NCBI GenBank assembly: GCA_021773295.1
Contig: JAJFKI010000007.1
Coordinates: 5,046-69,045 of the forward strand
Source: Gammaproteobacteria bacterium
GTDB lineage: Bacteria > Pseudomonadota > Gammaproteobacteria > UBA1113
DNA length: 64,000 nucleotides
Direction of reading: 5' to 3'
In this document: positions 6,601 to 60,120 of the stretch, piece after piece
Layout of the letters: every line of letters begins with the position of its first letter
How positions within the stretch are numbered: position 1 is the first letter of the stretch
Notes under the pieces: model-generated
Seen by the model: the letters and a program-made list of their open reading frames with translations, nothing else
What the model was told of the DNA's origin: nothing
Databases searched by the model: none
Program-made: the position numbers and the translations under genes

Positions 6601-7859
6601 ATGATGCCGGTAACGGTAATGCAGCGGGTAATGGTGGCACGGGTGGTGATGGCTTTGGTATTACATCTGATAGCACCAGTGGTGTCACAATGACCTCAAC
6701 TAACCTAACACAAATCAATGGCGGCGCTGGCGGTGCCGGTGGTAGTGGTGGCGCCGGTGGTAGCTCGAGCGCAGATCAAAATTCAGTGGGGCTTTCCGCT
6801 AACATTATTGCCTCTGCCAACGACGCAGGTAATGGCGGTAATGGTGGTAATGCTGGTAATGGTGGCCTGGGTGTTGGTTATAGTGCGACAGGTAGTAGCA
6901 CCAATAACTTAACGGGCGGCACTATTAGCAATATTACAGGGGGTAATGCCGGTGCTGGTGGTATTGCAGGTAATGGTGGTAGTTCAAACACTAATAGCAA
7001 CACCACCCTCAATAGATCCATAACCGCCAATGCAAACAACGGTGGCAATGGTGGTGTTGGTGGTAATGGTGCCCTTGGTGGTAATGCTTTTGGTATCAAC
7101 GCAACCAGTTCTGCGACCCTCACCCAGACTAATGGCACTAACATTCAACAAATCGTTGCGGGCAGCGGCGGCAATGGTGCAGCCGGCGGCATAGGCGGCG
7201 GCAGTAATGCCAATAGCAATAGCATCCAAGCGGTGGGCGATACCCTAACGGTCAATGGTGCCATTGCTGGCTTAGGTGGAGTTGGTGGCACGGGTGGCGT
7301 GGGTGGCCGTTCGGCAGGCGCCAATGCTGTTACAAGTGCAACCATTAATATTACAAACAATACCATCACTCAAATTACGGGTGGCCAAGGCGGTATTGGT
7401 GGCAATGGCGCGCTGGGTGGCTCTGCCAGTACCAATAATAACACCGTTGCAGTCCCAATAGTCGGAAGTGCAACGGCAGGTACGGGTCGCGATGGCGGTG
7501 ATGGTGGTAATGGCGCCAATGGTGGTGATGCGCGCTCAACGGATGACAATGGTGGTAGTGGTACCATCAATGGCGTTGGCCTCACCCTCAGCAACCGTAC
7601 CGCTGGCAATGGTGCTAACAGTGGTGCTGGCGGCAATGGCGGTGATGCAAACTCAAACGGTAATACACCTGGTCTAACGCAAACACTCGGCACACCAGGT
7701 GATGGCGGCGACAGTGGCACTGGTGGTGATGGCGGTGATACTGATTCAAATACAGGTACTGCGGGTAGCGCTGCTAATGCTGGTACAGCAGGTGCCGTGG
7801 GACTAGGTGGTACTGGTGGTGCAGCTGCAACAGGTGGCGCGGGCGCTACCGAACCATAA
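3627..7859 (+). CDS. Secreted 1410-aa glycine/asparagine/threonine-rich repeat protein, putative surface adhesin. N-terminal ~300-aa globular, possibly beta-barrel, domain followed by >15 degenerate ~75-aa Gly-rich repeats
   Basis: Signal peptide MALKNYIKTGCLIATLLSAPLAFA; N-terminal region with alternating aromatic/hydrophobic beta-strand-like pattern; remainder dominated by TAGTGG(D/G)SGN(A/G)GNGGTGG / IT(S/T)VTGG modules; single uninterrupted ORF. Confidence 0.6.
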   Translation: MALKNYIKTGCLIATLLSAPLAFAYTDYMFPNVVIEPAVGSYTSGKADVITPLFFRNDSLWFGDLAGKYGQDQDWYTSLGGGYRIINNDNFLSGAYVFADYNVTVDGSTFWVANPGVELYARNWDAHLNGYFPISSDTKTLAIFYGPNGKNPVKASGHSVFAEKLKLIEEIGMGGDLDVGYDIPRRIPVVGLIHIDAGPYYSHFPEGDDMIGGQVSVETRVNEFAKIKLTDSYDTLFQNSFLASLVIQFGGQGVPQTSPMSRHLVARPVRHLGSAAVGTAERTRKIISDDRVMVELFGNIWYFTSQGGFPFDKAFGTDNCTAEFPCDNASFNQITLNDINGFSVNALLFFKPGSYSVNSSGTNPNEITLLNGMSAYGRTDNYTMAAADDNRPTFFGTFDLAGNNLVTNVNFQGTGTNKLVGIDADNAPNLTLNKVRVSHYTGTSGNTVMGIDIDNSANLSMTDVDVNFIQGANGSNGTNGTNGANASGAGGIGGNGTVGTNGTSADNAIGINLNGDTNASLSTVTVSNIAGGTGGNGGTGGAGGSVTNPDAAAQGGSGAAGGVAGSGGNAIGLDMVSSTATIDTLSITSVTGGQGGSGGNSGNGGSADNDNNFDAGGGALNVNAGTGGGGSNGGNGGNGGAATGFVDTGDTITLNNSSITTISGGSAGAGGNSGAGGSATVDDNITQGGSGVLSVTAGTGGDSGNAGNGGTGGNSIGLDATTSATTTINNLTVNNINGGVGNSGGAAGSGGNATADDNDQLNNNALTANGGTGGDSGNGGNGGTGGTATGIHNDSSTMTINTATVSTVTGANGGLGGVSNQAGDADTSDNLSSFDNAGLTLTVTAGTGGTGGVSGTGGNGGVAIGIDNDQSAVSNLSTVTITSVTGGSGNSSGNAGRGGNANANNNDEAATGQNSSTAGNGGLGGTSANGGSAGLAVGLRSRNSSQNTISNSTISYISAGTGGAGGNGGAGGNSNANSNGIGDTGTLTVNADDAGNGNAAGNGGTGGDGFGITSDSTSGVTMTSTNLTQINGGAGGAGGSGGAGGSSSADQNSVGLSANIIASANDAGNGGNGGNAGNGGLGVGYSATGSSTNNLTGGTISNITGGNAGAGGIAGNGGSSNTNSNTTLNRSITANANNGGNGGVGGNGALGGNAFGINATSSATLTQTNGTNIQQIVAGSGGNGAAGGIGGGSNANSNSIQAVGDTLTVNGAIAGLGGVGGTGGVGGRSAGANAVTSATINITNNTITQITGGQGGIGGNGALGGSASTNNNTVAVPIVGSATAGTGRDGGDGGNGANGGDARSTDDNGGSGTINGVGLTLSNRTAGNGANSGAGGNGGDANSNGNTPGLTQTLGTPGDGGDSGTGGDGGDTDSNTGTAGSAANAGTAGAVGLGGTGGAAATGGAGATEP

Positions 7860-19607: not shown

Positions 19608-21296
19608 CTATGCTAACAAAAGCGTCGATATTTCTTTAGCCGTCATTGGTTTGTAATAATGATAACCCTGAGCACAATCACAACCTAACATTTGCAAACA
19701 CGTGGCTTGTTCTTGCTCCTCAACACCTTCGGCAATGACTTCAAGCTGCAATAATTTCGCTAATAAAATAATCGTTTTTATCACATTTTTTGTATTAGAA
19801 CAGTTTACAATTTTATCTATAAGTGATTTATCAAGTTTCAATTCATCAAAAGGTAGTTGAATTAAATAGAGCATTGATGAATAACCCGTACCAAAATCAT
19901 CAATGGAAAGTTTTAACCCGAGCTTTTTTAATTTTTTTACTTGCTCAAATGTAATATCTGCATTACTCATAACTGCTGCTTCACTGAGCTCGATGCAAAT
20001 TTGTTGAGGCGAAATAGTATGCTTCGTAAGAAGATTTTCAATAACCTCAACAAGGAGATCAAGCCGTAAATTATAGAGTGATATATTAATTGATAATATA
20101 AGTTCAGGATTTTTCTTCAGCCATGGCTTAACCTGCTGGCAGGCCGAATCTAACACCCAATAATCAATTATGTGAATGATGCCCGTTTCTTCAGCGATGG
20201 GTATAAATAATTCTGGAGAAATTTCACCAATTTCCCTTCCTTTCCAACGAATTAATGCTTCTATACCAATAATTTTGTTATCCAACATACGCACTTGTGG
20301 TTGATAACAAAGCGTAAATTCCTTCTTGCTTATCGCTGTATGTAACGCTTCTTGGATTTGATATTGATTTTTTAATGCTTCATTCATCTCATCTGAATAA
20401 AAGCACAGCTGATTCCCGCCTTTTTTCTTTGCTTCATACATTGCTTGATCAGAATGTTCGATAAGCTCTTCGGTTGAGCTTCCTGCGCTAGGATAGACTG
20501 CAACACCAATACTAAGCGCACAATAAATCTTCTGCTTCTCGTAATAAAAAGGCTGGGCAAAAGCATTGATGACTCTTTCCCCTAGCAACGCAATCTCTTT
20601 GAAATCATTTACTCGCTGTTGCACTAATATAAATTCATCACCGCCAAGTCTAGCAACTAAATCTGTATCACGAACAAGCTCGCGCATTCGAGTTGCAAAA
20701 TTTTTCAGGACATTATCCCCAGCACTGTGCCCATAAAGATCATTAATAGCTTTAAAGTTATCAATATCAATAAACATAATTGAAAAATTATAATTATAGC
20801 GTGTTGCTAGTTTAATAAGTTTATCCATCTCTTTCTGAATGGTTGTGCGATTTAGCAGATTTGTGAGTGGATCATATTCGCCAACTTCTTTTATGATAGA
20901 TTTTAATTTCAATATTTCTGAACGATCCCTCACCAATAGTAAAATAGTACTTTCATTTTCTATCTTGATTGGGATAAAGCTCATTAGGGTAGGAAACTCT
21001 GAGCCATCCAGTTGTAAGCCCATGAGATTATTATCCAGCAGTACTTTTGTACTGTTATCATTGAGTAATCCAACGATCTGTTGGTATATTTTTTTCTGAC
21101 TTCTCTCAGGTAACAAAGCCTCGATAGATTCATTAATAAGGCTCTCACTGTCTCTTGCAAATAGGCATTCCGCTGCGTAATTGACATAGATAATCTTGCA
21201 TGTCTTATCGATAAGAACAACGCCGTCACCAAGCATTTCGCAAAATTTATATAAAGGCTGATTCTCAAACTGTGTTTTTATTTGCTGGTCTGACAC
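19608..21296 (-). CDS. PAS-GGDEF-EAL c-di-GMP signalling protein
   Basis: 562 aa; PAS N-terminus, GGDEF (RLGGDEFILV), EAL (EALIRW...) domains. Confidence 0.9.
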   Translation of the reverse strand: MSDQQIKTQFENQPLYKFCEMLGDGVVLIDKTCKIIYVNYAAECLFARDSESLINESIEALLPERSQKKIYQQIVGLLNDNSTKVLLDNNLMGLQLDGSEFPTLMSFIPIKIENESTILLLVRDRSEILKLKSIIKEVGEYDPLTNLLNRTTIQKEMDKLIKLATRYNYNFSIMFIDIDNFKAINDLYGHSAGDNVLKNFATRMRELVRDTDLVARLGGDEFILVQQRVNDFKEIALLGERVINAFAQPFYYEKQKIYCALSIGVAVYPSAGSSTEELIEHSDQAMYEAKKKGGNQLCFYSDEMNEALKNQYQIQEALHTAISKKEFTLCYQPQVRMLDNKIIGIEALIRWKGREIGEISPELFIPIAEETGIIHIIDYWVLDSACQQVKPWLKKNPELILSINISLYNLRLDLLVEVIENLLTKHTISPQQICIELSEAAVMSNADITFEQVKKLKKLGLKLSIDDFGTGYSSMLYLIQLPFDELKLDKSLIDKIVNCSNTKNVIKTIILLAKLLQLEVIAEGVEEQEQATCLQMLGCDCAQGYHYYKPMTAKEISTLLLA

Positions 21297-24042: not shown

Positions 24043-27000
24043 CTAAACAAAGTTTTGCGTAATATCCGTATCGTAGTAAATATCGCCGACTAATGTCAAT
24101 GATTGAACGTGTTGATAGACTTCACCGCCAACGTTAATCGTACCAAGCGCTTGCCATCCTGCACCCGTTTCAATATTGAGTACATCACCTGTGTTACCCT
24201 GTACGATTAGCGTATTTGGCGTGTCAACTGCGCCAAAGGTGTTAATTTCCGTGGACAGATCAAATACATCGGATAAGCCTAAGGTCAAGGTATTATTCCC
24301 GGTGCCGGTGATGTCGACAACTTCAATACCCTCGTGGATTAAATTGTTGATACTGGTTAAATCCACGACTTCACCACTGCCAGATAATTGTAGAGTATCC
24401 AGACCTGCACCACCATCAACTTTCGTCGTGTCTGCAGCATCATAAATGAGGGTGTCATCACCTGCCCCAGCGCGGTAAACATCATTACCACCCTGGCCAT
24501 CTAAGGTATCATCGCCTTGCATCGCAACAAGGTGGTTATCAAAGACATTACCTGTTAAGGCATCCGCCCCACTGGTGCCTTCGAAATCAATAATACCATT
24601 CGTATTTGAACCATAGATAACAAATAGCTCACCTTTACCTGGTCCACCACCAAGTGGGCTTTCGGGACTTCCTAAGATAATATCGTCATAGCCATCGCCA
24701 TCGAAATCGGTGACTTCTAGGTTAGCGCCCGCAATATCATCACGGCCAAATCGTTCATTGGCAGTATCACCATTGATGACATAGCCATTAAAGCCATCAA
24801 TATTTGAACCCACTCCATTTAACGTAAACGGTGCCGTTATGTTTGCCGAGCCGTAAATGACATACAAATCACCCGCATTAGTAAGCCCTTCATCACCTAA
24901 GGGGGCAACAAGGATTAAATCACTATAACCATCACCATTGACGTCCCCTGAGCCACTAACCGTTAACTCACTGGCCGCACTAGCAATAACGGCAAATCCA
25001 ACACTAGGCATACCGCCTACGGCAATACTATTAAATGTCGCTGGTGTCATTGACGTTAACGAAGGACCCCCGTAAATCACATAACCGACAATATCATTTT
25101 CAGCATTTGGCGTGCGTGTGGTAACAAATATATCATTATAACCATCTCCATTGACGTCTCCCGCACCAACAATGTTACCTTCTGCTTCAAAATCAACATC
25201 CGTAAGATCCGCGCCAGCATCAACGACATCAATAAATATACCGTTAGTTCCATTTAATAAACTTGCATCTAATGGGTTGGTGTAAGCACTCGTGCTACCG
25301 TAAACAATGGCAAATCCATCCGTGTTACCATCATCTACTGTTCCAAAGCCAATATCATCTAAACCATCGCCGTTAATATCACCTAAGTTCGCAATTCTTT
25401 GTGTTGCCGTCTCGCCAGTGCCCTCAAATTCAAAGCCGTTAGTGCCATTAACGGTATTCACATCAAGGGTCGCACCAAAACTGGTACTACCAAATATAAC
25501 AAAATGATTGCCACCGTTATTTGTTGTCATTGCAAAATCTGCAATACCATCGCCATTAACATCACCTAAGCCTTGGGCATCGTCAATATTTCCAAAGTTT
25601 AAGTTATCTTCAATTGTAAAACCGCTGAGATCATCAATATGAGTTTCCGCTGAAAGGATTGTGCTTTGTCCGAAAATGACTCTACCAACATTAGTGCCTA
25701 TTGTAGAGGTATAGGAAACCAGCATATCACCAATACCATCACCATTGACATCCCCAAGACCTGCAACTGCAAAGTCGATCTCATTAGCAAACGTGCCACC
25801 AACTGCAACATCACCTGTAATGACAAATCCTTGTGTGCCCGCGCCTAAAGCAGTCTTATTAATGCTACCTGTTACGCGCGTTGCACCACCATAAACAATA
25901 TAGGCTTCGCCATCATCAAAACCTGAAATCGTATTTTCAACGCCACGCGCATTGACGATGATATCGAGAATGCCATCACCATTATAATCACCCACACCCA
26001 CGGCACCACCAAGCGCGTCATCACTACCAATACCATTAAGTGTAAATCCAACAGCATTTGTAAGCGTTGTAGAAACAAGCTCATCAAAGCCAACCACTGT
26101 CACACTCACTGTCGCTGAATCTGTGGCGCCTTGTGAATCTGTTATCGTATAGGTGAAAGTGTCAACAGCCGTTTGCCCACCCGTCAAATTATTATGAAAG
26201 CTCGTACCAAAAGCATCATAAGTAAAGTTACCACTGGCATCCACGGTAACCGTTGCTCCATTCACACTGGTGGCATCAAAACTGGTGACACTAAAGGTAT
26301 CTCCCGTATCGATATCACTATCGTTTGTTACCACGTTACCTGCATCTTTACTTTTCGGATCAGGCAAGCTAACCGTATCAAAGGTGTCATCAACCGCTGT
26401 CGGTGCATCATTCACACCAGTCACAGTAATGGTCACTGTGGCTGTATCTGTACCACCATTACCATCATCGACTGTATAGGTAAAGGTATCGTTGAGGGTT
26501 TGGCCAACTGCTAATGCTTGCAAAGCTGCAGCCACCGTTGAATCATAAGTAAAACTACCATCGCCATTAACATTCACTGTTGCACCATTGACACTAGCTG
26601 CATCAAACACTGTGACTGTTAAGGTGTGGCCATCTGGATCGGTATCATTAACAAGTACGCCAGGCGCTGCAATATTAAGTGGCGTATCTTCATTGGTCGC
26701 ATCGCTGTCATCCATTGCATCAGGGACAAAATTAACGCCCGTTACCGTGACAGTAACCGTCGCTGTATCCGTACCGCCATTACTATCATCTATCGTGTAT
26801 GTGAAGGTGTCATTGAGGGTTTGGCCAACTGTTAATGCTTGTATTGTAGCAGATCCTGTTGGATCATAACTGAAACTACCATTGCCATTGACCGTTACAG
26901 CTGCACCACTGGTGCTGACTGCATCAAAGCCCGTGACGGTTAAACCCTGGCTTTCTGCATCTGTATCATTCACTAATACTCCTGGCACACCCTCATTAAG

Positions 27001-30000
27001 CACTGCATTTTCATCGGTTGCATAACCATCATCCACAGCATCTGGGGCATCATTAATGCCCGTGACATTAATGGTGACTGTCGCCGTATCGGTGCCAGTG
27101 TTGCCATCATCGATGGTATAAGTGAATGTATCATTGAGGGTTTGACCCGTATTGAGTGCTTGTATCGTCGCAGCACCGGTTGGATCATAACTATAGCTAC
27201 CATTGGCGTTGACATTAACTGTGGCACCACTCATGCTCGTTGCATCAAAGGCTGTGACTGTGATACCGTGACTTTCTGGATCCGAATCATTAACTAATAC
27301 ACCCGGCGCACCCGCATTAATCACGCTATCTTCATTCGTGGCATTAGCATCATCCACAGCATCTGGAGCATCATTAATACCTGTGAGTGTCACTGTGACT
27401 GTCGCCGTATCGGTGCCACCGTTACTATCATCAATCGTATAAGTGAATGTGTCATCAAGGGTTACGCCCGTGTCTAATGCTTGTATCGCCGCAGCACCCG
27501 TTGGATCATAACTGAAGCTACCATTGGCATTGACATTAACCGTGGCACCATTCACACTCGTTGCATTAAATGCTGTGACGGTTAAACCATGGCTCTCTGC
27601 ATCGGTGTCGTTGTTCAACACACCAGGCACACCAATATTCAACGCTGTATCTTCATCAGTTGCGTAACCATCATCTACTGCATCCGGAGCATCATTGACA
27701 CCCGTCACTGTGACGGTGACCGTCGCCGTATCGACGCCACCATTACCATCACTCACAGTATAATCGAACGTGTCATTAAGGGTAACACCCGTATTTAAGG
27801 CTTGAATGGTTGCGGCACTGGTAGGATCATAACTAAAGCTACCATCAGCATTGACATTAACTACGGCACCACTCGCACTCGCTGCATCAAACGCAATAAC
27901 TGTCAGTGTATCACTGGTATCAACGTCCGTATCACCATTTAAAACACCTAATGCTGCATTGACATTTAGCACAGCATCTTCGCTCGCATTGTAACCATCA
28001 TTATCAGCGACTGGCACATCATTTTCCCCGGTGATGGTCACCGTTACTGTAGCAACATCTGAGCTACCATTACCATCATCGACCGTATAACTAAAGCTGT
28101 CCACGGCTGTTTCACCGACCGCTAAGGATTCAAACTGACCATTAGGGTTATAAGTGACATCGGTCCCGTTATTGGTGACAAGACCTGTCGTACCCGCGAG
28201 GTTAAGACCGCTAATGGTTAGTGTGTCATTAAGATCTGGATCAAGATCATTAGCTAAGACGTCAACAAGCGTGCCAGCGTTATCTTCACTCACACTTGGT
28301 GTGTCTGCTACGGCTGTGACAGGATCATTAACACCTGAAATATGCATGGTAACCGTTTGCGTCGCTGTAGCACCATGCGCATCTTGTGCAGTATAAGTAA
28401 AAACATCCTGCGCCGTTTCTCCAACAGATAAATAATTAAAATTATTGCCTGGCTCATACTGAAAGTCACCACCACCAAGATCAGTGACTAATCCTATCGC
28501 ACCTGTTGTATTTAAACTTATAAAGGTTACATCCTCCCCTGAGTCAGTGTCAAAGTCGTTACCAATAGGAGAGGGATATATAGGAAAAACATCATCTTCT
28601 GTCAAAAAGTTATTGTCTGCAACTAAGACCATTGGATCATCAACACCAAGCACATTAATTGTCACATGAGCTGTGTCAGTAGCAATCCCATCGGTTATTG
28701 TATAATTGAAAGAATCATTAGTTGTTTGGCCCCCTGGTAAAATTTGTATGATAAAGACCGATGTTGGATCATACGTAAAACTGCCATCGCTTAGTAATGT
28801 AACATCAGCCCCTAGAAGCGAAGTAAACATACCAATTGGTGAAGTTACCGTCAATGTATCTAACGTATCAACATCTGTGTCATTGGCCAATATGCCACTT
28901 GCGGCATTAATATTAAAAATCGTATCTTCAGTAGCACCAACATAACTATCATTTACTGCAATAGGCGCATCATTAACCCCTTGAATGCTATAAGTGACCG
29001 TTGCTGTATCTGTGCCACCATTGCCATCACTGATTGTGTAAGTAAACACGTCTGTAACTACTTGGCCTTCAGCAAGTGCTTGGATATCTGGGTTTGTATT
29101 AGTGATGCTATATTGGTTTAATCCTGATACAGAATCAACGAATAAGTTACCGTAAGTGCCGCCTCCGAAGGAAGGACTTGAAGAAACACTACCAGCAACA
29201 TTTGTAACCGTCAGTGTATCTAATGTATCAATATCTGTGTCATTTACAAACAAGCTCGCACCAGTGTCTGCGAACTGAAATATACTTGGAAGATTCGCAT
29301 CTTCAATCAAAGGTATTGGCTGCGCATCATTGCCTGCCGTTGGTGCATCATTTGCACCTGTGACGGTAATATTTAAATTAGCTGTAGCTGTGGCGCCTTG
29401 ATCATCGGTGATTTGGTATGAGAATGAATCAATCACAGTTTGCGTCGCTGCTAATGCTTGAACATTTGCGGCGGCGTTGTCTAGTGTGTAGCTGTAAACA
29501 CCGTTGCTGGCAATGGTTACCGAGCCATAAGTGCCCATAACTACATTACCTACATTCGCCGGTAGACCAGCCACTGCTGTAACTGAAAATGATGAGCCAT
29601 TATCTACATCAGTATCATTAGTTGTAACTGTACCTCCTGCAACTAAAGTGCCATCTTCAGCCACATCATTTGAATCATCATTTGCTACGGGTGCGTCGTT
29701 GATACCCGTAATCGTCACCGTCACACTGGCTGTCGAGAACCCGCCATTACCATCACTCGCCGTATAACTAAAGGTATCGGTCGCGGTTTCTCCCACGGCT
29801 AAGCTTTCAAATTGTCCATTGGGATCGTAGGTGACATTCGTACCGTTATTAATAACACTGCCCAGTGTGCCCGCCGTATTCACAGCACTCACCGTCAACA
29901 CATCACTCGTATCCGGATCCGTATCATTGCTTAAGACATTAATCGCAACAGCAGGACCATCTTCATCGGCGGCGCCTACATCTGCAACGGCCGTTGGGCC

Positions 30001-31497
30001 ATCGTTTGAGCCCGTAATCGTCACCGTCACACTGGCTGTCGAGAACCCGCCATTACCATCACTCGCCGTATAACTGAAGGTATCGGTCGCGGTTTCCCCC
30101 ACGGCTAAGCTTTCAAATTGTCCATTGGGATCGTAGGTGACATTCGTACCGTTATTGATAACACTGCCCAATGTGCCCGCCGTATTCACAGCACTCACTG
30201 TTAAACTCGGGCTATCAATATCGCTATCGTTGGCTAGTACATCAATCACAACTGGCAAACCATCTTCATTAGCATTCCCAACATCATCAACTGTTGTAGG
30301 ATTATCATTTACGCCATTAACCGTCACCGTCACCGTTGCGGTATCCGTCAAACCTATTTCATCGGTGACAACGTATGTGAACATGTCTATTACAGATTGG
30401 CCAGCCGCTAGAGATTGAAAGCTAGCGGCTGGTGTGTATGTTACGACTCCATTGACAAGTTGTACTGTGCCTGTTGTTGTGCTGCCGTCAATGGAGAGTA
30501 CTGATAATGTTGTACCTGGGTTGGGATCGTTGTCATTTGCTGTTAATACATTTTCGCTTATTACGAGCGGTGTGTCTTCATTTGTTATTAGGTTGTCTGG
30601 ATTCGCAGTGGGAACTTGATTGAGTCTTGCGACGTTAATTGTAATTGGCGCTTCTGCTGTTGCACCACTTGGATCGGTGACCCTAGCTACCACTGTATAA
30701 GTTTGACCACCTAAATAATTAATTGCATCCGCGTTTGCAACTGAGAGAACACCTGTTGTCGAATTAATAGTGAATAAACTGAGCCCATTACCACTTACTA
30801 GTGAGTAAGTGATAGGATCGGCATCAGGATCAGAGGCTTGGACTGTGCCAATGGTGCCACCATCAGGAACAAACTGATTAACATTATATTGCAATGCACC
30901 TATGATGGGCGCTTGGTTGCTAGATTCCGAGACTGTGTTTGTAAAGTCGTCTGGATTATCATCAGACGGTGGTGGTGGCTCATTATCATCGCTAGGTGGT
31001 ATAGTTATTGTGACGGGGGGCTCTGCATTAGGGGTCGTTATTTGTGGTGGACTTTCCAAAGCTGTATTGAAATTTTGAAAATCATTACTTATCAATGAAA
31101 CCTCAGGCACATACTCAAGGGATGAAGATTGCTGTAGTTCCTCCATGGTGTAATAAGTTGTTGGGATCTTTAAATCAGTATCTGTTAAATCAAAGTTTTT
31201 AATTTTTGCGGGTTGAGCTAAACGACCTTGGAGACTTAAACCATCTATTATATGTATTTCTCGATGAACCGCAGAATCGATATACTCCATAGACATACCG
31301 ATTGATACACTCGTTAAACCGCCTGAGAAGAATGCGCCTGGTGTAAACGCAACGATGGATGGCGCAATAATAAAGCCAACCAGACCAACTGCTGTTATTA
31401 CAACATCAGGATGATCAAAAGCGGATTGGCCTACTCGACCATAATCTTGGACAACGACGGAACGTCTTCTTCGTCGTTTCTCATCTGGTAATGCCAT
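24043..31497 (-). CDS. Giant (2484 aa) type I-secreted RTX adhesin. ~14 tandem ~100-aa cadherin/VCBS-like repeats ending in (V/I)NDAP, FG-GAP-like repeats, RTX GGxGxD nonapeptides and a C-terminal secretion signal
   Basis: Repeats (..DAPDAVDDGYATDED..LTVTAF.ATS.NGATVNVN.NGSFSYDPTG...TDTATVTVTVTG(V/I)NDAP); GDVNGDG(Y/I)(N/A/S)D FG-GAP-like motifs; GQGGNDVYRAGAGDDTL RTX motifs; adjacent to ABC/HlyD genes. Confidence 0.85.
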   Translation of the reverse strand: MALPDEKRRRRRSVVVQDYGRVGQSAFDHPDVVITAVGLVGFIIAPSIVAFTPGAFFSGGLTSVSIGMSMEYIDSAVHREIHIIDGLSLQGRLAQPAKIKNFDLTDTDLKIPTTYYTMEELQQSSSLEYVPEVSLISNDFQNFNTALESPPQITTPNAEPPVTITIPPSDDNEPPPPSDDNPDDFTNTVSESSNQAPIIGALQYNVNQFVPDGGTIGTVQASDPDADPITYSLVSGNGLSLFTINSTTGVLSVANADAINYLGGQTYTVVARVTDPSGATAEAPITINVARLNQVPTANPDNLITNEDTPLVISENVLTANDNDPNPGTTLSVLSIDGSTTTGTVQLVNGVVTYTPAASFQSLAAGQSVIDMFTYVVTDEIGLTDTATVTVTVNGVNDNPTTVDDVGNANEDGLPVVIDVLANDSDIDSPSLTVSAVNTAGTLGSVINNGTNVTYDPNGQFESLAVGETATDTFSYTASDGNGGFSTASVTVTITGSNDGPTAVADVGAADEDGPAVAINVLSNDTDPDTSDVLTVSAVNTAGTLGSVINNGTNVTYDPNGQFESLAVGETATDTFSYTASDGNGGFSTASVTVTITGINDAPVANDDSNDVAEDGTLVAGGTVTTNDTDVDNGSSFSVTAVAGLPANVGNVVMGTYGSVTIASNGVYSYTLDNAAANVQALAATQTVIDSFSYQITDDQGATATANLNITVTGANDAPTAGNDAQPIPLIEDANLPSIFQFADTGASLFVNDTDIDTLDTLTVTNVAGSVSSSPSFGGGTYGNLFVDSVSGLNQYSITNTNPDIQALAEGQVVTDVFTYTISDGNGGTDTATVTYSIQGVNDAPIAVNDSYVGATEDTIFNINAASGILANDTDVDTLDTLTVTSPIGMFTSLLGADVTLLSDGSFTYDPTSVFIIQILPGGQTTNDSFNYTITDGIATDTAHVTINVLGVDDPMVLVADNNFLTEDDVFPIYPSPIGNDFDTDSGEDVTFISLNTTGAIGLVTDLGGGDFQYEPGNNFNYLSVGETAQDVFTYTAQDAHGATATQTVTMHISGVNDPVTAVADTPSVSEDNAGTLVDVLANDLDPDLNDTLTISGLNLAGTTGLVTNNGTDVTYNPNGQFESLAVGETAVDSFSYTVDDGNGSSDVATVTVTITGENDVPVADNDGYNASEDAVLNVNAALGVLNGDTDVDTSDTLTVIAFDAASASGAVVNVNADGSFSYDPTSAATIQALNTGVTLNDTFDYTVSDGNGGVDTATVTVTVTGVNDAPDAVDDGYATDEDTALNIGVPGVLNNDTDAESHGLTVTAFNATSVNGATVNVNANGSFSYDPTGAAAIQALDTGVTLDDTFTYTIDDSNGGTDTATVTVTLTGINDAPDAVDDANATNEDSVINAGAPGVLVNDSDPESHGITVTAFDATSMSGATVNVNANGSYSYDPTGAATIQALNTGQTLNDTFTYTIDDGNTGTDTATVTINVTGINDAPDAVDDGYATDENAVLNEGVPGVLVNDTDAESQGLTVTGFDAVSTSGAAVTVNGNGSFSYDPTGSATIQALTVGQTLNDTFTYTIDDSNGGTDTATVTVTVTGVNFVPDAMDDSDATNEDTPLNIAAPGVLVNDTDPDGHTLTVTVFDAASVNGATVNVNGDGSFTYDSTVAAALQALAVGQTLNDTFTYTVDDGNGGTDTATVTITVTGVNDAPTAVDDTFDTVSLPDPKSKDAGNVVTNDSDIDTGDTFSVTSFDATSVNGATVTVDASGNFTYDAFGTSFHNNLTGGQTAVDTFTYTITDSQGATDSATVSVTVVGFDELVSTTLTNAVGFTLNGIGSDDALGGAVGVGDYNGDGILDIIVNARGVENTISGFDDGEAYIVYGGATRVTGSINKTALGAGTQGFVITGDVAVGGTFANEIDFAVAGLGDVNGDGIGDMLVSYTSTIGTNVGRVIFGQSTILSAETHIDDLSGFTIEDNLNFGNIDDAQGLGDVNGDGIADFAMTTNNGGNHFVIFGSTSFGATLDVNTVNGTNGFEFEGTGETATQRIANLGDINGDGLDDIGFGTVDDGNTDGFAIVYGSTSAYTNPLDASLLNGTNGIFIDVVDAGADLTDVDFEAEGNIVGAGDVNGDGYNDIFVTTRTPNAENDIVGYVIYGGPSLTSMTPATFNSIAVGGMPSVGFAVIASAASELTVSGSGDVNGDGYSDLILVAPLGDEGLTNAGDLYVIYGSANITAPFTLNGVGSNIDGFNGYVINGDTANERFGRDDIAGANLEVTDFDGDGYDDIILGSPESPLGGGPGKGELFVIYGSNTNGIIDFEGTSGADALTGNVFDNHLVAMQGDDTLDGQGGNDVYRAGAGDDTLIYDAADTTKVDGGAGLDTLQLSGSGEVVDLTSINNLIHEGIEVVDITGTGNNTLTLGLSDVFDLSTEINTFGAVDTPNTLIVQGNTGDVLNIETGAGWQALGTINVGGEVYQHVQSLTLVGDIYYDTDITQNFV

Positions 31498-31640
31498 ACA
31501 ACCACCAACCTATAACTCAACAACACACTAGCAAAACCTGCCAAAAGAAGTTTTGCTCTCAGTATTTCATAAGTATAGTAAAGCTATGCGAGAATGCTTA
31601 TTAAGTTTTTTTTAATAAAGAAGAAATTTGTTAGTAACGC

Positions 31641-32942
31641 TTAAGGTTCTTTAAAGGCTCTGTCTGTCGCCTTGAAGAATGGATTAAGAATATAGTCTAA
31701 TACTGACTTTTTACTCGTAATAATATTGACGCTTGCCATCATCCCAGGAAGAATTGGGAGTTTCCTGCCTTTTTTGTTCTTCAGATAATTTTTATCTGTA
31801 GCAACTAATACTCGATAATAACTTTTCCCTTCTTCACTCTGCATAGTATCGGCACTGATTACAGCAACTTTTCCTTGCATACCACCAAAAATTGCAAAAT
31901 CATAAGCAGTGAACTTAACATAGGCTTCATCTCCAACTTTGATAAAGGCGATATCTTTTGGATCAACCTGCACCTCTACTGTCAATGTATCATCCAGCGG
32001 TACAAGTTCCATGATGTCTTCACCAGGAGGGATAACGCCGCCGATAGTGCTAATGTTAACATTGTTTACAATACCATTAACAGGTGAAACGATGGTCGTC
32101 CTGAATGCTCTATCTCTTGATGCTTCGATCCCTTTTTGCAAAATAATAAATTCTGACTGTAAATTTTTAAAGTTTTTATAGGCGTCTGCTTTAAACTTTT
32201 CTTTTTCTTCAATAATGCTGCCTTTAATTTCATTGACCTGTCGTTGCACGCGAATCAACTCTAAGTCTGACATAATCTGCTCTTTTACTAATGGCTTTAA
32301 TATATTTAATTCTTTGTTAGCCAAATCATAACTTCTTTGCATTGTCGATAAGCTTGTTTTTAAATCTGACATCCTTGCTTTAAAGATTTCAGTTTCACTT
32401 TTCACTAGCTCAGGGGCATTCTTTCTGACTTCCTGAGGGAAATCAATTGAAGTATCACCATTAATTTCAGCTCGGTAGCGAACAATTGTAGTGAGTAATG
32501 TCAAATATTTTATGTACTCTTCATTGTAATCCGCTTTAAAACGTGTATCGTCCAATTTTAACAAGGGTTGACCTCTTTTAACACGATCACCGTCTTTAAC
32601 AAATATTTCTTCAATAATCCCACCTTCTAAACTTTGAATAACTTTTACTTTTGATGAAGGTATTACTTTGCCTTGCCCAATAGTCGTTTCATCGATATAG
32701 CCAAGTCCTGCCCAAATAATCGCAATTAATAATAAGGCAATAACGGCATACAAAAAGAGGTTAGCTGCTCTTGGCGTAGTAATTAACAATGCTTGTTTGC
32801 TATCTGAGACAAAATCAATATCGTCAAGCTCTAAGCCATATAGTTTTTCCATATGCTTTAAATATTTCTGACGTGCTTCTAAATGTGATGAATGCACATC
32901 ATCAGACTTGTTCTCAACATCATTGTTTTTTTCGTCACTCAT
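31641..32942 (-). CDS. Type I secretion periplasmic adaptor (HlyD/LapC family)
   Basis: N-terminal TM anchor, long coiled-coil, C-terminal beta domain; start set at MSDEK (8-nt overlap with ABC transporter stop), the tracked ORF extends further. Confidence 0.85.
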   Translation of the reverse strand: MSDEKNNDVENKSDDVHSSHLEARQKYLKHMEKLYGLELDDIDFVSDSKQALLITTPRAANLFLYAVIALLLIAIIWAGLGYIDETTIGQGKVIPSSKVKVIQSLEGGIIEEIFVKDGDRVKRGQPLLKLDDTRFKADYNEEYIKYLTLLTTIVRYRAEINGDTSIDFPQEVRKNAPELVKSETEIFKARMSDLKTSLSTMQRSYDLANKELNILKPLVKEQIMSDLELIRVQRQVNEIKGSIIEEKEKFKADAYKNFKNLQSEFIILQKGIEASRDRAFRTTIVSPVNGIVNNVNISTIGGVIPPGEDIMELVPLDDTLTVEVQVDPKDIAFIKVGDEAYVKFTAYDFAIFGGMQGKVAVISADTMQSEEGKSYYRVLVATDKNYLKNKKGRKLPILPGMMASVNIITSKKSVLDYILNPFFKATDRAFKEP

Positions 32943-35091
32943 CTTTTTCACCTGCTGTGTTGTCCCCCAAACGCTCAAGAATCTTATCTTTACTCCCTTG
33001 CGCAAGTACCGTCCCCTTGTCAATCACAATCAATTTATCTAATATATTCAATATTGACATACGATGTGCTGTCAGTATTAATGTTTTGTCTACTATCATT
33101 TTTTGTAAATTGGTAATCACTCGCTTCTCAGTTTTAAAATCCATTGCGCTTGTGGGTTCATCAAATAGAAAAACGGGTGGGTTACCTAAATAGGCGCGTG
33201 CTAATGCAATACATTGTCGCTGCCCACCTGACATACTGGCACCACGTTCATCGATAAGCATGCGATAACCTTCATGATGTTCATTTGCAAATTGATCAAC
33301 TGCAGCAAATTCCGCAACTTTTATCACAGCACTATCTTCTACCCATGGTGCTCGCAAGGCAATGTTGTCTCTCAAAGTACCATAAAATAATGTGAAATCT
33401 TGTAATACACTGCCTATGTTTCGTCGTAAGTCCACAGGGTCAATTTGTGCTATGTCAATGTTATCAATCTTGATATTACCATCTTGTGGTTTATATAAAC
33501 CAAGAATCAAACGTTGAATCGTCGTTTTACCAGAACCTGTCCCCCCAATAATACCCATCTTATCGCCTGCTTCAATTTTGAAGGAGACATTATTTAGCAC
33601 AGCATAATCACTGGTTGGGTAAGCAAAGGTAACATTTTCAAATTCTACTGAACCTTTCAATTTGGTATAGCTAGTATACTTTTTCCCCATAGGACGTTCG
33701 TGAGGAAGCTCCATTATCTTATTTAAACCTTTAAGTGCAATTCTTGATTGTTGTATTCGAATTAAAATATTCGTGATTTGTGCTAATGGCGCTAATGCTC
33801 TACCCGCAAGAATGGTACAAGCGATTAACCCACCTACGGTTAATTGCCCCTGCATAATAAGATATACACCTAATATCACCACAGTCACCGTCACAACTTG
33901 CTGGATGAATGTGGCAAAGCTCATGGCTATTACTGAGAAGAACCTTGAACGTTGTGATGCACGGTAAGTAATACCAATATATTTTTCCCAACGACGCAGC
34001 ATAGTACCTTCTGCTACCATGCTTTTTAAAGTTTCCAAACCATTGATTGACTCGATCAAGACTGCATGCTTTTGGTTAGAACCAATGTAAGCCTTTTCTA
34101 TTGCCCTTCGCATCGGAATTTCTAATAAAATGCCCGCAAGGATAACCAAAGGCACAGCAATCAGCGGTACTATAGCCAGGACACCACCAATCATGTAAAT
34201 AATATATATAAATAGCAATACAAATGGAAAGTCAATAAAGCAGGTGAGTGTTGCTGATGTGAAAAAATCTCTTAGTACTTCAAACTCTCGTAAATTATTA
34301 GCAAACGCACCTGAGGAACTTGGCTTAGAACTTAGATTAATCGACAGCATCTGATTAAACAGCGTACTTGCAAGCAATACATCTGTTTTTTTACCGCTGA
34401 TGTCGATAAAGTGCCCTCGCAAAACTTTCATGACAAAGTCAAACAAGAATATAATTCCAACACCTGACGCTAATACCCAAAGAGTTTCAACCGTACTATT
34501 TGGGATTACTTTATCATAAACAATCATAATAAAAATTGGTGTAGCCAAAGCAAATGCATTAATCAAAAATGCTGACATCATCACCCTAACAAAAATAGAT
34601 TTATAACGGAACATTGTTCCCCAAAACCATGACTTTTCTTTTTGCACTTCAAATTCATCGGCACGCTTTTCAAAATCAACTTGTTTTTGACAAAAGATAG
34701 CATAGCCACTGTATTGATCAGCAATAGTTTCCAGGCGTATTCGTTTTACCGAGACATCTGTTTCAGGGAAAATGACTTCCGCCGTGCCATCATCAAAATA
34801 TTCTGTTATTAAGCAAGCTCGATCATCCTTAAGCACTAGCACTGCAGGCAATACTAAGCCAGGAATTCTATCAATAGGCCGCTTAACAACTTTCGCATAA
34901 TAACCAATGCGTCCAGCTGCCCTAATAAATAACTGTGGTGTTAACTTGCGCCCAACCAATGGCAGACCCGCCGTTAATGATTCCATCGAGTGTGGTTGTT
35001 GATCAAACTTTGTAAGAATGACCAAACAACCCAATAATGGATCATCAAAATGTAATTCCTGAAACCCCAAGTTTTCACTAAATTGAGTCAT
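32935..35091 (-). CDS. Type I secretion ABC transporter (HlyB/LapB family) with N-terminal C39-like domain
   Basis: 718 aa; ~130-aa N-terminal C39-like domain, 6-TM domain, Walker A GGTGSGKTT, signature LSGGQRQ. Confidence 0.88.
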   Translation of the reverse strand: MTQFSENLGFQELHFDDPLLGCLVILTKFDQQPHSMESLTAGLPLVGRKLTPQLFIRAAGRIGYYAKVVKRPIDRIPGLVLPAVLVLKDDRACLITEYFDDGTAEVIFPETDVSVKRIRLETIADQYSGYAIFCQKQVDFEKRADEFEVQKEKSWFWGTMFRYKSIFVRVMMSAFLINAFALATPIFIMIVYDKVIPNSTVETLWVLASGVGIIFLFDFVMKVLRGHFIDISGKKTDVLLASTLFNQMLSINLSSKPSSSGAFANNLREFEVLRDFFTSATLTCFIDFPFVLLFIYIIYMIGGVLAIVPLIAVPLVILAGILLEIPMRRAIEKAYIGSNQKHAVLIESINGLETLKSMVAEGTMLRRWEKYIGITYRASQRSRFFSVIAMSFATFIQQVVTVTVVILGVYLIMQGQLTVGGLIACTILAGRALAPLAQITNILIRIQQSRIALKGLNKIMELPHERPMGKKYTSYTKLKGSVEFENVTFAYPTSDYAVLNNVSFKIEAGDKMGIIGGTGSGKTTIQRLILGLYKPQDGNIKIDNIDIAQIDPVDLRRNIGSVLQDFTLFYGTLRDNIALRAPWVEDSAVIKVAEFAAVDQFANEHHEGYRMLIDERGASMSGGQRQCIALARAYLGNPPVFLFDEPTSAMDFKTEKRVITNLQKMIVDKTLILTAHRMSILNILDKLIVIDKGTVLAQGSKDKILERLGDNTAGEKDE

Positions 35092-35229: not shown

Positions 35230-35406
35230 CCGCATATACCCATCGTTCTTCAAAATGCGAGATTTAGGCGATTTGATTTTTGTTCCCGTGCAGGCTTTGA
35301 AATGCGGGTAATAGCCATTCTATTGCCAAATTTCAAAGCCTGTACGGGGACAAAAAGCAATAGCATTAATCTCACATTTTGGAGTACGATGGGTATATAC
35401 CCATCG
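35230..35406. repeat. MITE-like ~175-bp palindromic element, copy 1
   Basis: ~28-bp terminal inverted repeats (atatacccatcgttcttcaaaatgcgag / ctcacattttggagtacgatgggtatat) flanking an internal long imperfect palindrome; terminates in the 20-bp perfect palindrome cgatgggtatatacccatcg. Confidence 0.6.
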
Positions 35407-42070: not shown

Positions 42071-42898
42071 TTATTTGTCCTCCACATATAAATCTGGAAA
42101 TAATTCAGCACTAGGATCGACCGCATAGTCTACAAAATTCATAACACCTTCCTCTTTTAAAACATTTTCATCAAAATAAAAATTACCACTATTGGTTTTA
42201 GCTTCTTTAGTTAATATAGCGTAGGCAGCATCCGCAACAATGCTGGGGTGTCGACTACGCTTGATTAATTCACTGGGGAAATGCACTTTAATGGCCATGG
42301 TTGCAATGGTTGTTCTAGGCCACAATGAATTCACTGCCACACCTTGTTCTTTATACTCGGCTGCCAATCCCAAGGTACACATACTCATTCCATATTTTGA
42401 CATCGTGTAGGCGAGATGATCTTTAAACCATTTTGGCGATAAATTAAGGGGAGGCGATAAAGTGAGTATATGAGGATTATCTGATTTCACTAAGTGCGGC
42501 AAACAGGCTTGTGACATCGCAAAAGTTGCGCGCACATTCACATCAAACATTAAATCAAATCGACGCATTGGCGTCTTTTGTGTGGGTGTCAAATTAATAG
42601 CGCTGGCATTATTGACGAGTATATCAAGTTTGCCAAACGCATCGATGACTCTGTCTACCACTGCTTGTATTTGCTTTTCATCGCGCACGTCTAAGGCGAG
42701 CCCTAGTGCCTTACCACCTGCTTGTTCTACGGCTTTTGCCACGGTATCAATAGTACCTGGTAATGAAGGGTGTGGTTTGGTGGTTTTACCTGTAATAATA
42801 AGAGTGGCACCATCTCGCGCACATTTTAAGGCAATGGCTTCGCCGATGCCACGGGTCGAGCCCGTAATCAATATCACCTTGCCTTCCAGGGGCTGCAT
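42071..42898 (-). CDS. Short-chain dehydrogenase/reductase (SDR)
   Basis: TGSTRGIGEAIA Rossmann motif, YxxxK region; stop abuts the start of the NYN gene (1-nt spacing). Confidence 0.85.
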   Translation of the reverse strand: MQPLEGKVILITGSTRGIGEAIALKCARDGATLIITGKTTKPHPSLPGTIDTVAKAVEQAGGKALGLALDVRDEKQIQAVVDRVIDAFGKLDILVNNASAINLTPTQKTPMRRFDLMFDVNVRATFAMSQACLPHLVKSDNPHILTLSPPLNLSPKWFKDHLAYTMSKYGMSMCTLGLAAEYKEQGVAVNSLWPRTTIATMAIKVHFPSELIKRSRHPSIVADAAYAILTKEAKTNSGNFYFDENVLKEEGVMNFVDYAVDPSAELFPDLYVEDK

Positions 42899-42964: not shown

Positions 42965-43372
42965 CTATTCTTTATAAATACCCTTCTTATCAATCAACAC
43001 TTTCATAGAAAAATTTTTATCCATAGCAATTAAAAAGTGGTAATAAAGTTGCTGATGTTCATTTTTCTCCAGACTCAATCGATAGTATAAAGTGAAACCA
43101 TTAAGCTGCTTTCGACAATAACTGGATAAATTAAAGTCATAAAGCGCACTATCTGACACGACACAGGAAAAATGCTGTTTCTGTTTTATGCCGGCTGCTA
43201 GTGACAGCGCTAAGCTTTGGGCAAGAACTTGGCGCCTTTGTCTCGCCCAATGGTTTTGGTTTGCTCGTACTAACCACTCAATATTGGAAAACGTAGCCAT
43301 TGTCATCGCTGTTAAAATAAAAAGTAAGACTAATACTTGCACTAGGATAAATCCCTTTCTTCTACCTTGCAT
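42965..43372 (-). CDS. Minor pilin/pseudopilin-like protein (PilX/GspK-like N-terminus)
   Basis: RRKGFILVQVLVLLFILTAM class-III-signal-like hydrophobic N-terminus lacking Glu+5; last gene of a three-gene overlapping operon. Confidence 0.4.
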   Translation of the reverse strand: MQGRRKGFILVQVLVLLFILTAMTMATFSNIEWLVRANQNHWARQRRQVLAQSLALSLAAGIKQKQHFSCVVSDSALYDFNLSSYCRKQLNGFTLYYRLSLEKNEHQQLYYHFLIAMDKNFSMKVLIDKKGIYKE

Positions 43373-44240
43373 AAGCTATCCTCAGCCAGGCATACCACGC
43401 TTGATAATATTTGCCATCCTCAGCGATATGAAGCGCACCATTAAAACGGTAAGGACGTTTCTTTAACGTCACAGCTTCGATGCTATCCGTTAACAAGGCA
43501 AGTTGTAGCAAGGGCTGCGGTCCAGGCAGCCCTTTTAATTGCATATTATCCACACCTGCTACAATTTCTTGTGCTGGGTAGTACAGTGATTTTTGATATA
43601 AGGCATAATTTTTTTGCTGACGCTTGTTATGGTAATTGGTTTGTCGAATATAAAAATAATCATCCTCATAAAGGCCCACCCAAGCTCGCCCACGAAAACC
43701 CGATAAATTACTCTGTGTTACTACAGTAAATGAGTGGCCATGTTGCTGCACTGTCTTCACAATAAATTCTTTTGCAACAGTACAATTGCTAATGATCATC
43801 CGCATACCATTGTTCACTGTTCGATCAAGTTTGAACTGTAGTTGATGGCCTTGGGAGTTGATAGCAATAACGCGGGCAGGTTGTGCTGACATATAACGTA
43901 CTTCCAACACCATTGTCTTTGGTTTCATGGCACGTTTAACGCTCGCAGGCAAACCGCTGGAATAGTTAGAAAGAATTCTCAGTGCGTGCTGTGGGTTAAT
44001 ATGGGCCGTTTTTAAAACCTGTTGATGATTATCACAACCTAAAAACCCACTGAGAAGGCTTGCTTTTGTGATGATCGATAATGCGACTAAGCCATGGTAT
44101 TGCACGGTGGCGCGCGCCTGAGTCATTTCCATGCTTTTTTTTGCAGTCAATAATAAACGACTTACGAAACTGATAAAAAGACTACTCAAGAAAATCACGA
44201 GTAATAATTCCATCATCGCTACCGCTATCACTTTTTTCAT
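43362..44240 (-). CDS. Putative minor pilin, PilW-like
   Basis: 292 aa; N-terminal hydrophobic helix (AMMELLLVIFLSSLF); size and operon position between PilV-like and PilX-like genes. Confidence 0.35.
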   Translation of the reverse strand: MKKVIAVAMMELLLVIFLSSLFISFVSRLLLTAKKSMEMTQARATVQYHGLVALSIITKASLLSGFLGCDNHQQVLKTAHINPQHALRILSNYSSGLPASVKRAMKPKTMVLEVRYMSAQPARVIAINSQGHQLQFKLDRTVNNGMRMIISNCTVAKEFIVKTVQQHGHSFTVVTQSNLSGFRGRAWVGLYEDDYFYIRQTNYHNKRQQKNYALYQKSLYYPAQEIVAGVDNMQLKGLPGPQPLLQLALLTDSIEAVTLKKRPYRFNGALHIAEDGKYYQAWYAWLRIAYAR

Positions 44241-44242
44241 TG

Positions 44243-44557
44243 TTAATATCTCAACTTAGCCTGTGATTGCTGCCATTGAATACTAAGTGCGCCCTGACTT
44301 ATGTTGACTTTTGCATAAGGTATTAACGTTCTTAGCTGCCTCTCCCAGTGGGGGATACGTGATGACTGTTGTGCTTGAATGATGTTATAGGCACTTATTA
44401 ACGCCGTCTCAGCGACGGTCCTTTTCAGTAGTCGCTCACTTTGTTGTGCGCTTAGCGCCAATAATTTAAGGCAGGCAAAAGCGCCAAAACTCATTACCAA
44501 TAAGGCGACTAACAACTCTAGCAATGAAAACCCTCTGGCAAATGTTGGCATAGGCAC
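44243..44557 (-). CDS. Type IV (pseudo)pilin-like protein with canonical prepilin signal (PilV/FimT-like)
   Basis: N-terminus ..ARGFSLLELLVALLVMSFG: G-1, F+1, E+5 prepilin peptidase motif. Confidence 0.55.
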   Translation of the reverse strand: MPMPTFARGFSLLELLVALLVMSFGAFACLKLLALSAQQSERLLKRTVAETALISAYNIIQAQQSSRIPHWERQLRTLIPYAKVNISQGALSIQWQQSQAKLRY

Positions 44558-53957: not shown

Positions 53958-54118
53958 TTTTCTCTAGTACCTCTTCCATGTTGTTGAATCATTTTAATGA
54001 ATGCTTAAGCATAAGTACACCTTAGTGTCTATTTGTTTCAATTTAAAAATCATTAAGAGCCTTATTAATAGGTATATGGCCCTCACTACGCTATATTTTA
54101 AGTATGGGTGGTTAGGAT

Positions 54119-54577: not shown

Positions 54578-54586
54578 GGTATTCAG

Positions 54587-58223: not shown

Positions 58224-58226
58224 AAG

Positions 58227-60111: not shown

Positions 60112-60120
60112 GAGTTAACC

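Follow-up and report, generated by a model that had tools for sequence, protein, structure and literature searches.

A probable type I secretion operon encoding a giant RTX adhesin-like protein with an orphan N-terminus

Genes and domains of the secretion locus

Contig JAJFKI010000007.1 of a gammaproteobacterium was analyzed over a stretch of 64,000 nucleotides, called the window here, in which positions 24043–35091 carry three minus-strand genes that run from an ATP-binding cassette (ABC) exporter through an HlyD-family adaptor to the gene of a giant protein with repeats-in-toxin (RTX) motifs (Table 1). Judged by their sequences, the first two genes encode the inner-membrane pair of a type I secretion system (T1SS), and the product of their intact neighbor has the features typical of RTX substrates. 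We consider it very probable that the locus is a three-gene type I secretion operon and that the adjacent giant RTX repeat protein is its substrate. The gene order and the coordinates agree exactly with those given in an earlier note that a model had made from the letters alone, and an independent metagenomic relative (locus L015; ABC identity 65%) has the same operon, with the substrate adjoining it, between the same flanking genes. The substrate joins a known class, the T1SS giant RTX adhesin-like proteins that come with an LssB/LapB-type exporter, and its only nonstandard feature is a conserved orphan N-terminus in place of a LapA-type retention module. We use the word adhesin on the strength of the predicted domain types, namely the cadherin/Big_9 extender repeats and an integrin-alpha-like propeller.

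Table 1. Features of the secretion locus in window coordinates
Feature	Coordinates	Strand	Basis
ABC exporter, 718 aa, LssB/LapB type	32935..35091	-	TIGR03375, ATPase motifs
C39-like N-terminal domain of exporter, residues ~1-140, non-catalytic	34672..35091	-	3B79, 3ZUA matches
HlyD-family membrane fusion protein (adaptor), 433 aa	31641..32942	-	TIGR01843, HlyD_3, HlyD_D23
Adaptor-substrate intergenic region, 143 nt	31498..31640	-	L015 alignment, hairpin
Substrate gene, 2484 aa	24043..31497	-	intact open reading frame
N-terminal 70 aa: basic head and hydrophobic segment	31288..31497	-	orphan sequence
Non-repetitive acidic linker, residues 71-195, Pro-rich end	30913..31287	-	composition, ortholog
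Single cadherin-like beta-sandwich domain, residues 196-294	30616..30912	-	Pfam Cadherin PF00028
14 tandem beta-sandwich repeats (extender), residues 295-1806	26080..30615	-	self-built hidden Markov model
FG-GAP region, seven repeat motifs, residues 1807-2305	24583..26079	-	Pfam FG-GAP, AlphaFold2 model
RTX nonapeptide region, residues 2306-2406	24280..24582	-	HemolysinCabind, CyaA blocks
Acidic C-terminal domain, residues 2407-2484, ends DTDITQNFV	24046..24279	-	conserved in homologs

The exporter scores 908.6 bits against TIGR03375 (type_I_sec_LssB, cut-off 693) and 489 bits against the HlyB model, which is under the cut-off of 725. Its ATPase motifs are intact, with Walker A at residue 516, the signature MSGGQ at 620, Walker B at 640, and the H-loop at 674. 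The closest solved relative is E. coli HlyB (7SGR, E 4e-105), and homologs at about 50% identity, which include entries from Legionella, Fluoribacter, Legionellales, Piscirickettsiaceae, and Methylophaga, bear the JGI name LapB or the NCBI name "type I secretion system permease/ATPase". A search of the genome contigs of a species set with the exporter protein returned only distant ABC genes, most of them from Firmicutes, at 26–33% identity, and that set seems not to contain the source lineage. The lineage is poorly sampled, SodB and HtpG having no relative of at least 90% identity in a collection of 15 billion proteins. The C39-like character that the earlier note had assigned to the transporter is borne out by a match of its N-terminal domain to 3B79 (E 5.5e-17), which is the N-terminal domain of a toxin-secretion ABC protein from Vibrio parahaemolyticus, and by a weak match to the C39-like domain of HlyB (3ZUA, E 0.058). 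We read this domain as non-catalytic because the position of HlyB His83 is occupied by Ala, because the sole nearby Cys, C22, aligns to a Ser in 3B79, and because the Pfam Peptidase_C39 score of 16.7 bits lies under the cut-off of 22.

The adaptor matches TIGR01843 (type_I_hlyD) with 358.9 bits (cut-off 208.65) as well as Pfam HlyD_3 and HlyD_D23, and it has one N-terminal transmembrane helix at residues 62–80. Its longest open reading frame (ORF) spans 31641–33023 on the minus strand, and the sequence points to the ATG at 32942 as the most likely start. The junction of the two genes reads AAAAAG-ATGAGTGA-CG, where the adaptor opens with ATG AGT GAC and the ABC gene ends with GAT GAG TGA, and with this start the 8-nt overlap previously described is seen. 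The intergenic region between the adaptor and the substrate is probably the substrate's own promoter and leader. It contains a hairpin with a 10-bp stem (31530–31557) about 30 nt before the substrate start codon and a 17-nt block, ATAGCTTTACTATACTT, at 31571–31587 that is nearly identical in the intergenic alignment with L015; a Shine-Dalgarno-like GGTGG lies 4 nt upstream of the substrate ATG. Promoter and terminator scans gave nothing better than shuffled sequence, and an Rfam scan detected no riboswitch, and thus no cyclic di-GMP (c-di-GMP) riboswitch upstream of the adhesin gene.

The substrate is read in a frame of 2484 codons with no internal stop and no frameshift, an internal frameshift being one of two defects that the earlier note had asked to be looked for. 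The protein is about 253 kDa with a pI of about 4, and it contains no Cys and only 27 Lys and Arg residues combined, seven of which fall within residues 1–70. Its single cadherin-like domain scores 30.7 bits on Pfam Cadherin (cut-off 28.8, residues 210–289). The earlier count of about 14 tandem repeats of about 100 residues also holds for the extender that follows, in which the repeats are 101–116 aa long and 13 of the 14 carry an NDxDxD-type calcium-binding motif. The accompanying statement that they end in (V/I)NDAP is exact for six of them, and the others end in variants that include VNDNP, SNDGP, ANDAP, ENDVP, and VNFVP. Scores on Pfam Big_9 (606 bits), Cadherin_4 (602), and Cadherin_5 (404) and on the NCBIfam models tandem-95 (NF012211, 470 bits, cut-off 90) and VCBS (TIGR01965, 380 bits) are all far over the cut-offs, and adhesin-type beta-sandwich repeats make up about 60% of the substrate. 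At the DNA level, the extender has a period of 321 bp (4.6 copies, 75% identity), and identity between repeats spans 61–95%, most of it 61–75%. Two adjacent repeats, at 29696–29898 and 30002–30204, are 95% identical over 203 nt, which points to a recent duplication; copy number may be underestimated from short reads.

Downstream of the extender come seven GDxNGDG motifs, at residues 1836–2263, with a Pfam FG-GAP score of 80 bits. An AlphaFold2 model of residues 1807–2484, built with 60 homologs, has a mean pLDDT of 83.5 and a pTM of 0.88, and the solved structures nearest to it are the propellers of integrins alpha5, alphaV, and alphaIIb (E about 1e-10, TM-score at most 0.59 on the target). 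The FG-GAP region, which had been described as propeller-like, thus models as an integrin-alpha-like beta-propeller, a reading that rests on predicted structure, with the blades not counted on the model. We regard this propeller as the likely ligand-binding head.

HemolysinCabind gives no match in a scan of the whole protein but scores 44.8 bits (cut-off 23) on the RTX region in a scan restricted to the last 198 aa. RTX blocks of CyaA in the PDB match the C-terminal part of the substrate (E 1e-15), and the AlphaFold2 model has regularly spaced short strands here that we read as a beta-roll. The RTX motifs of the earlier description are confirmed; a perfect GGxGxD occurs only once, at residue 2362, together with several degenerate nonapeptides. 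The acidic C-terminus is likewise as described, with seven Asp or Glu and no Lys or Arg in the last 61 aa, and we presume from its sequence that the C-terminal domain is the type I secretion signal. Such signals follow no strict consensus. Still, a conserved C-terminal export domain is indicated because the last 634 aa align over 94–99% of their length, at 30–38% identity, with more than 4000 FG-GAP/RTX proteins that share the DTDIT end (DTDITQNIS or DTDITRTIS in the homologs, DTDITQNFV here). The lack of a C-terminal T1SS signal, the second defect to be looked for, was thus not seen. Source names among these homologs are "integrin alpha", "FG-GAP repeat protein", and "Ca2+-binding RTX toxin-like protein".

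The orphan N-terminus and its ortholog

The substrate opens with a basic head that contains KRRRRR and has a pI of about 10. The hydrophobic stretch to which the earlier note had drawn attention follows at residues 32–51 (nt 31345–31404) and is the only strongly hydrophobic segment in the protein; its Kyte-Doolittle mean over the 19 residues 32–50 is 2.48, and its Hessa sum is +0.6 kcal/mol. The acidic linker behind it closes with a Pro-rich tract that has 12 Pro in residues 140–195.

No Pfam or NCBIfam family matches residues 1–206 even at E<=10, and this includes NF033682 and NF041514, so that the comparison with LapA retention-module models proposed in the earlier note has now been run and is negative. 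This negative is meaningful because the models are sensitive enough to detect a control: the N-terminus of LapA scored 131 bits on NF033682 (retention_LapA) and weakly on NF041514 (Legion_RtxA_N). The reported lack of a LapG-type di-alanine site also holds, since the first Ala-Ala of the protein is at residue 357; in L. pneumophila RtxA, the LapG cut falls between Ala108 and Ala109, and the sites of the family lie at positions 106–112 (PMC11264772). A word-indexed search of 5.8 billion proteins with the N-terminal 197 aa found no homolog, and a full HMMER pass over 1.84 billion representatives with residues 1–150 returned only the protein itself and two spurious low-complexity matches, an AHNAK-like repeat protein and a leucine-rich-repeat protein, which were rejected as homologs. 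The best PDB candidate, an N-terminal fragment of an Rhs1 protein, was non-significant (E 0.71) and was not treated as meaningful.

The one ortholog, at locus L015, comes from an ENA metagenome contig whose DNA recurs in a JGI contig (L020), and a metagenome scan with the adaptor alignment re-found only the organism of L015, with DNA 100% identical. The ABC gene is 65% identical and the adaptor 60% identical to those of the window, and the shared flanking genes are htpG, phhA, the pilin-like genes, SDR, NYN, fadE, thiolase, and fadB. The giant protein of L015 starts at the same position and extends for 490 aa before the contig ends inside the repeats. Over 300 aa, the two N-termini are 31% identical, with RRRR, DPDV, the hydrophobic stretch, and LTSV..G..M conserved; the ortholog has a Pro-rich tract of about 50 residues at the same position, ahead of the first cadherin-like domain, and its first ~300 residues contain no Ala-Ala. 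Because the Arg run is kept with different codons behind a conserved start, and because DPDV and LTSV..G..M are conserved, the N-terminus reads as translated and under purifying selection.

The hydrophobic segment is much weaker in the ortholog (Kyte-Doolittle 1.73, three prolines, Hessa sum over +2.7 kcal/mol), so a true transmembrane helix is not a conserved feature, and a transmembrane anchor, as the principal interpretation of this segment, was downgraded on account of the marginal, proline-containing ortholog. A small Val/Ile/Thr-rich plug of beta type is at least as plausible. We propose that the N-terminal 70 aa could act as a stopper or an anchor.

Export, retention, and competing explanations

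By family membership, the LssB/LapB-type exporter and the HlyD adaptor form the inner-membrane part of the machine, and they would recruit a TolC-family outer-membrane channel encoded outside the window. The non-catalytic C39-like domain of the exporter may hold the unfolded substrate, as in HlyB. From the HlyA and LapA systems, it may be expected that recognition of the substrate relies on the RTX region together with the conserved C-terminal domain and that the chain passes out unfolded, C-terminus first. Extracellular calcium would then fold the RTX beta-roll, the FG-GAP propeller, and the 15 cadherin/Big_9-type domains, and the predicted architecture is that of a stiff rod with the integrin-alpha-like propeller near its far end, where it could serve as a binding head. 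The orphan N-terminus would leave last, with its basic head, hydrophobic segment, ~70 non-repetitive residues, and Pro-rich tract.

What happens to this last portion is where the readings part. It is quite possible, at a little less than even chances, that export halts with the conserved N-terminal ~140 residues in or beneath the channel and the Pro-rich tract spanning it, which would give a LapA-like display without LapG/LapD-controlled release. The ~50-residue tract is estimated to be long enough to span a TolC-like channel. We think it unlikely that the N-terminus goes further than this and is a new LapG-independent retention device for type I-secreted adhesins. In such a device, the hydrophobic segment would either remain in the inner membrane or block the export channel, with the Pro-rich tract running through the TolC-like tunnel, and the tether would be permanent, with no protease-controlled release.

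Stalling and full release seem to us about equally likely. If fully released, the protein would be a free T1SS product, such as an extracellular matrix, aggregation, or host-binding protein, whose N-terminus has no role in retention, and we give this a probability that likewise falls somewhat short of one-half. The missing LapA-type retention module and di-alanine site are what such a product would have, and the 49 homologs closest to the C-terminal FG-GAP/RTX module are all without a retention module; many large T1SS repeat proteins have no retention module and may be released directly (PMC7730722). However, the N-terminal 70 aa are kept in both orthologs, though in no other homolog, which suggests a function, and the layout of a non-repetitive N-terminus, a Pro-rich linker, a long extender, and a distal head is that of surface-anchored RTX adhesins.

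Several points weigh against the picture of a secreted, surface-displayed adhesin as a whole. The homologs of the C-terminal module that have no retention module are probably released, a point that bears on the retention step. The N-terminus has no recognizable fold, and single-sequence AlphaFold2 prediction of its 200 aa reached a pLDDT of 36, which is unusable; a conserved membrane anchor is doubtful given the much weaker, proline-rich ortholog segment. The repeat copy number is uncertain, and the array may be misassembled, because one repeat pair is 95% identical and the contig of the ortholog breaks within the repeats. Secretion, calcium folding, adhesion, and retention of the substrate are all steps that we infer. 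Finally, there is no outer-membrane factor within the 64 kb. A Pfam scan covered nearly all window ORFs of 120 aa or more, and nrdA, nrdB, a short-chain dehydrogenase (42071–42898), and ORFs nested in larger genes were read by eye only; among the ORFs scanned or read in the window there is no OEP/TolC, LapG (Peptidase_C93), or LapD protein, in agreement with the earlier note, which had thought a TolC encoded elsewhere probable. The missing outer-membrane factor is unsurprising because its gene is usually unlinked to the ABC and adaptor genes (PMC6959600). Absence of TolC, LapG, and LapD from the window does not show their absence from the genome, and in Legionella they are unlinked as well: L. 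pneumophila has lssBD, tolC-lapD-lapG, and rtxA at three separate loci (PMC11264772, PMC6959600).

That the substrate is a true member of the LapA/RtxA subfamily, with a retention module, a di-alanine site cut by LapG, and c-di-GMP control through LapD, is very unlikely in our view. The exporter does belong to the LssB/LapB family, the lineage looks related to Legionellales, where LapG and LapD occur unlinked to the substrate, and a PAS-GGDEF-EAL gene lies three genes downstream. Yet the N-terminus is unmatched by the two models that should recognize such a module, one of which detects LapA, neither the substrate nor its ortholog has an Ala-Ala at the expected place, genes for LapG and LapD are not in the window, and the GGDEF-EAL protein is not LapD. 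A pore-forming RTX cytotoxin whose hydrophobic segment inserts into target-cell membranes is more improbable still. RTX repeats together with one strongly hydrophobic segment would suit such a toxin, but the hydrophobic domain of pore-forming RTX toxins measures several hundred residues, whereas here there is a single segment of about 20; moreover, no acyltransferase (hlyC/rtxC-like) gene was found at the locus among the ORFs examined, and more than half of the protein consists of the adhesin-type repeats.

Equally improbable is that the hydrophobic segment is a Sec/SRP signal anchor that leaves the protein tethered to the inner membrane, in the periplasm, and not exported by the type I route. 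Its hydrophobicity values would allow membrane insertion, and basic residues precede it, but the Arg run and the segment lie 18 residues apart, with acidic residues among these, the segment is marginal in the ortholog, and a Cys-free, RTX-bearing, presumably calcium-dependent protein of 2400 aa with a conserved T1SS-type C-terminus beside an exporter fits type I export. We are just as skeptical of the giant ORF being an assembly artifact or a decaying gene. The source contig is probably from a metagenome-assembled genome, some repeats are close to identical in DNA, and the ortholog assembly breaks in the same kind of sequence; against this, a single frame leads from a conserved N-terminus to a conserved C-terminus with no stop, and most repeats have diverged enough (61–75%) to assemble, so that at most their copy number is uncertain.

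A type I-exported adhesin-like protein remains our preferred reading, and it can be set beside known systems. With the L. pneumophila LssB/LssD/TolC-RtxA system, the locus shares the exporter subfamily (TIGR03375 LssB, Legionella LssB being ~50–52% identical), an HlyD-type adaptor, a giant repeat-protein substrate with C-terminal RTX, and the lack of an outer-membrane factor linked to the ABC and adaptor genes. It differs in that the substrate gene comes immediately after the adaptor gene, rtxA having a locus of its own, and in that the substrate has no NF041514 domain, no retention module, no Ala-Ala at 108–109, and an FG-GAP propeller as its head where RtxA has a vWA domain. The P. fluorescens LapA/LapEBC system is alike in its ABC exporter with a C39-like domain, its adaptor, its C-terminal RTX and (in the window substrate, presumed) secretion signal, its megadalton-class calcium-binding beta-sandwich extender, and a non-repetitive N-terminus that would be exported last; in contrast, no lapE accompanies the window exporter, no lapG or lapD is in the window, and the substrate has neither a retention-module match nor a TAAG-type site. 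The label LapA/RtxA-like in the earlier note can therefore be kept in the sense of working like these adhesins and not in the sense of carrying their retention module and LapG site, both of which are lacking.

MpIBP of Marinomonas primoryensis, FrhA, and MhLap are built from an N-terminal region, a long calcium-rigidified Ig-like extender, at least one domain for ligand binding near the C-terminus, an RTX beta-roll, and a secretion signal. The window substrate has the same modular plan, its secretion signal being a presumed one, but it differs in its integrin-alpha-like propeller, its far fewer extender domains (15), and its unrelated N-terminus. The E. coli HlyA/HlyB/HlyD/TolC system is alike in the non-catalytic C39-like domain of the exporter, in the RTX region and presumed C-terminal signal of the substrate, and in having no linked TolC. 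The window exporter, however, falls below the HlyB cut-off (489 vs 725 bits) and has no hlyC-like gene beside it, and HlyA is an acylated pore-forming toxin whereas the window substrate is an adhesin-type repeat protein. Widespread bacterial FG-GAP/RTX proteins of 650–1100 aa, which are mostly propeller plus RTX, share the last 634 aa and the DTDIT C-terminus, and compared with them the window substrate adds 15 beta-sandwich domains and the orphan N-terminus upstream.

The significance of the locus is modest. It is a clean example of a giant RTX adhesin-like protein encoded directly beside an LssB/LapB-type exporter, and it pairs an exporter of that family with a substrate that has no LapA retention module or LapG site. 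The field recognizes as unsettled whether, and how, adhesins that lack the module are kept on the cell, and for this the conserved basic-hydrophobic N-terminus with the Pro-rich tract offers a concrete candidate. The propeller head suggests a ligand-binding module other than those studied in LapA, RtxA, FrhA, and MpIBP.

Neighboring genes and related loci

The operon is flanked on one side by fadB-like, thiolase, and fadE genes and on the other by genes for an MFS transporter, a beta-lactamase-family protein, a PAS-GGDEF-EAL protein, and dusA. The PAS-GGDEF-EAL protein (19608–21296, minus strand) has intact GGDEF and EAL motifs. It was considered as a LapD and rejected, as its N-terminal domain is a PAS domain and not that of LapD and its score is 126 bits vs a LapD cut-off of 1020.

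A composite inverted repeat lies at 35234–35398, between the fadB-like and ABC genes, with arms of ~70 nt around a 26-nt loop, and the final 27 nt of the fadB-like gene fall within one arm. The spacer between these two genes is 143 nt in L015 vs 280 nt in the window. Candidate explanations for the repeat are a terminator, a small mobile-element-like insertion, and a duplication scar. Because of this long hairpin, the Rfam scan gave its sole strong match here, to a plant miRNA model, which is spurious.

Distant LssB loci (51–55% identity; L016, L017, L022, L023, and L024) have the ABC-adaptor pair without an adjacent substrate and thus add no N-terminus to the comparison, and an OEP gene is nearby in L017 and L024. 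In three of these loci, an APS kinase gene directly follows the adaptor gene (L016, 13484–14083; L017, 13449–14042; L022, 5847–6455), and in two of the three an ATP sulfurylase gene follows as well, so that an association of the T1SS pair with sulfate-activation genes recurs.

Elsewhere in the window, an ORF of 1410 aa on the plus strand (3627–7859) has a signal-peptide-like start and an N-terminal domain of ~300 aa, followed by ~1100 aa of Gly/Asn/Ala/Thr-rich repeats of GGxGGxG type. Its local GC content is 0.49–0.54 vs about 0.41, neither Pfam nor NCBIfam gives a match, and the product is perhaps one more surface protein. A complete Tad/Flp pilus cluster at 53088–63415, with genes for a prepilin peptidase, TadE, a TadG-like ORF, CpaB, the CpaC secretin, CpaD, CpaE, CpaF, TadB, and TadC, is a second adhesion system in the window. 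Three small ORFs resembling type IV minor pilins lie at 42965–44557 on the minus strand, one with an N-terminal methylation motif and two with no family match, and L015 has three unannotated genes at the syntenic position.

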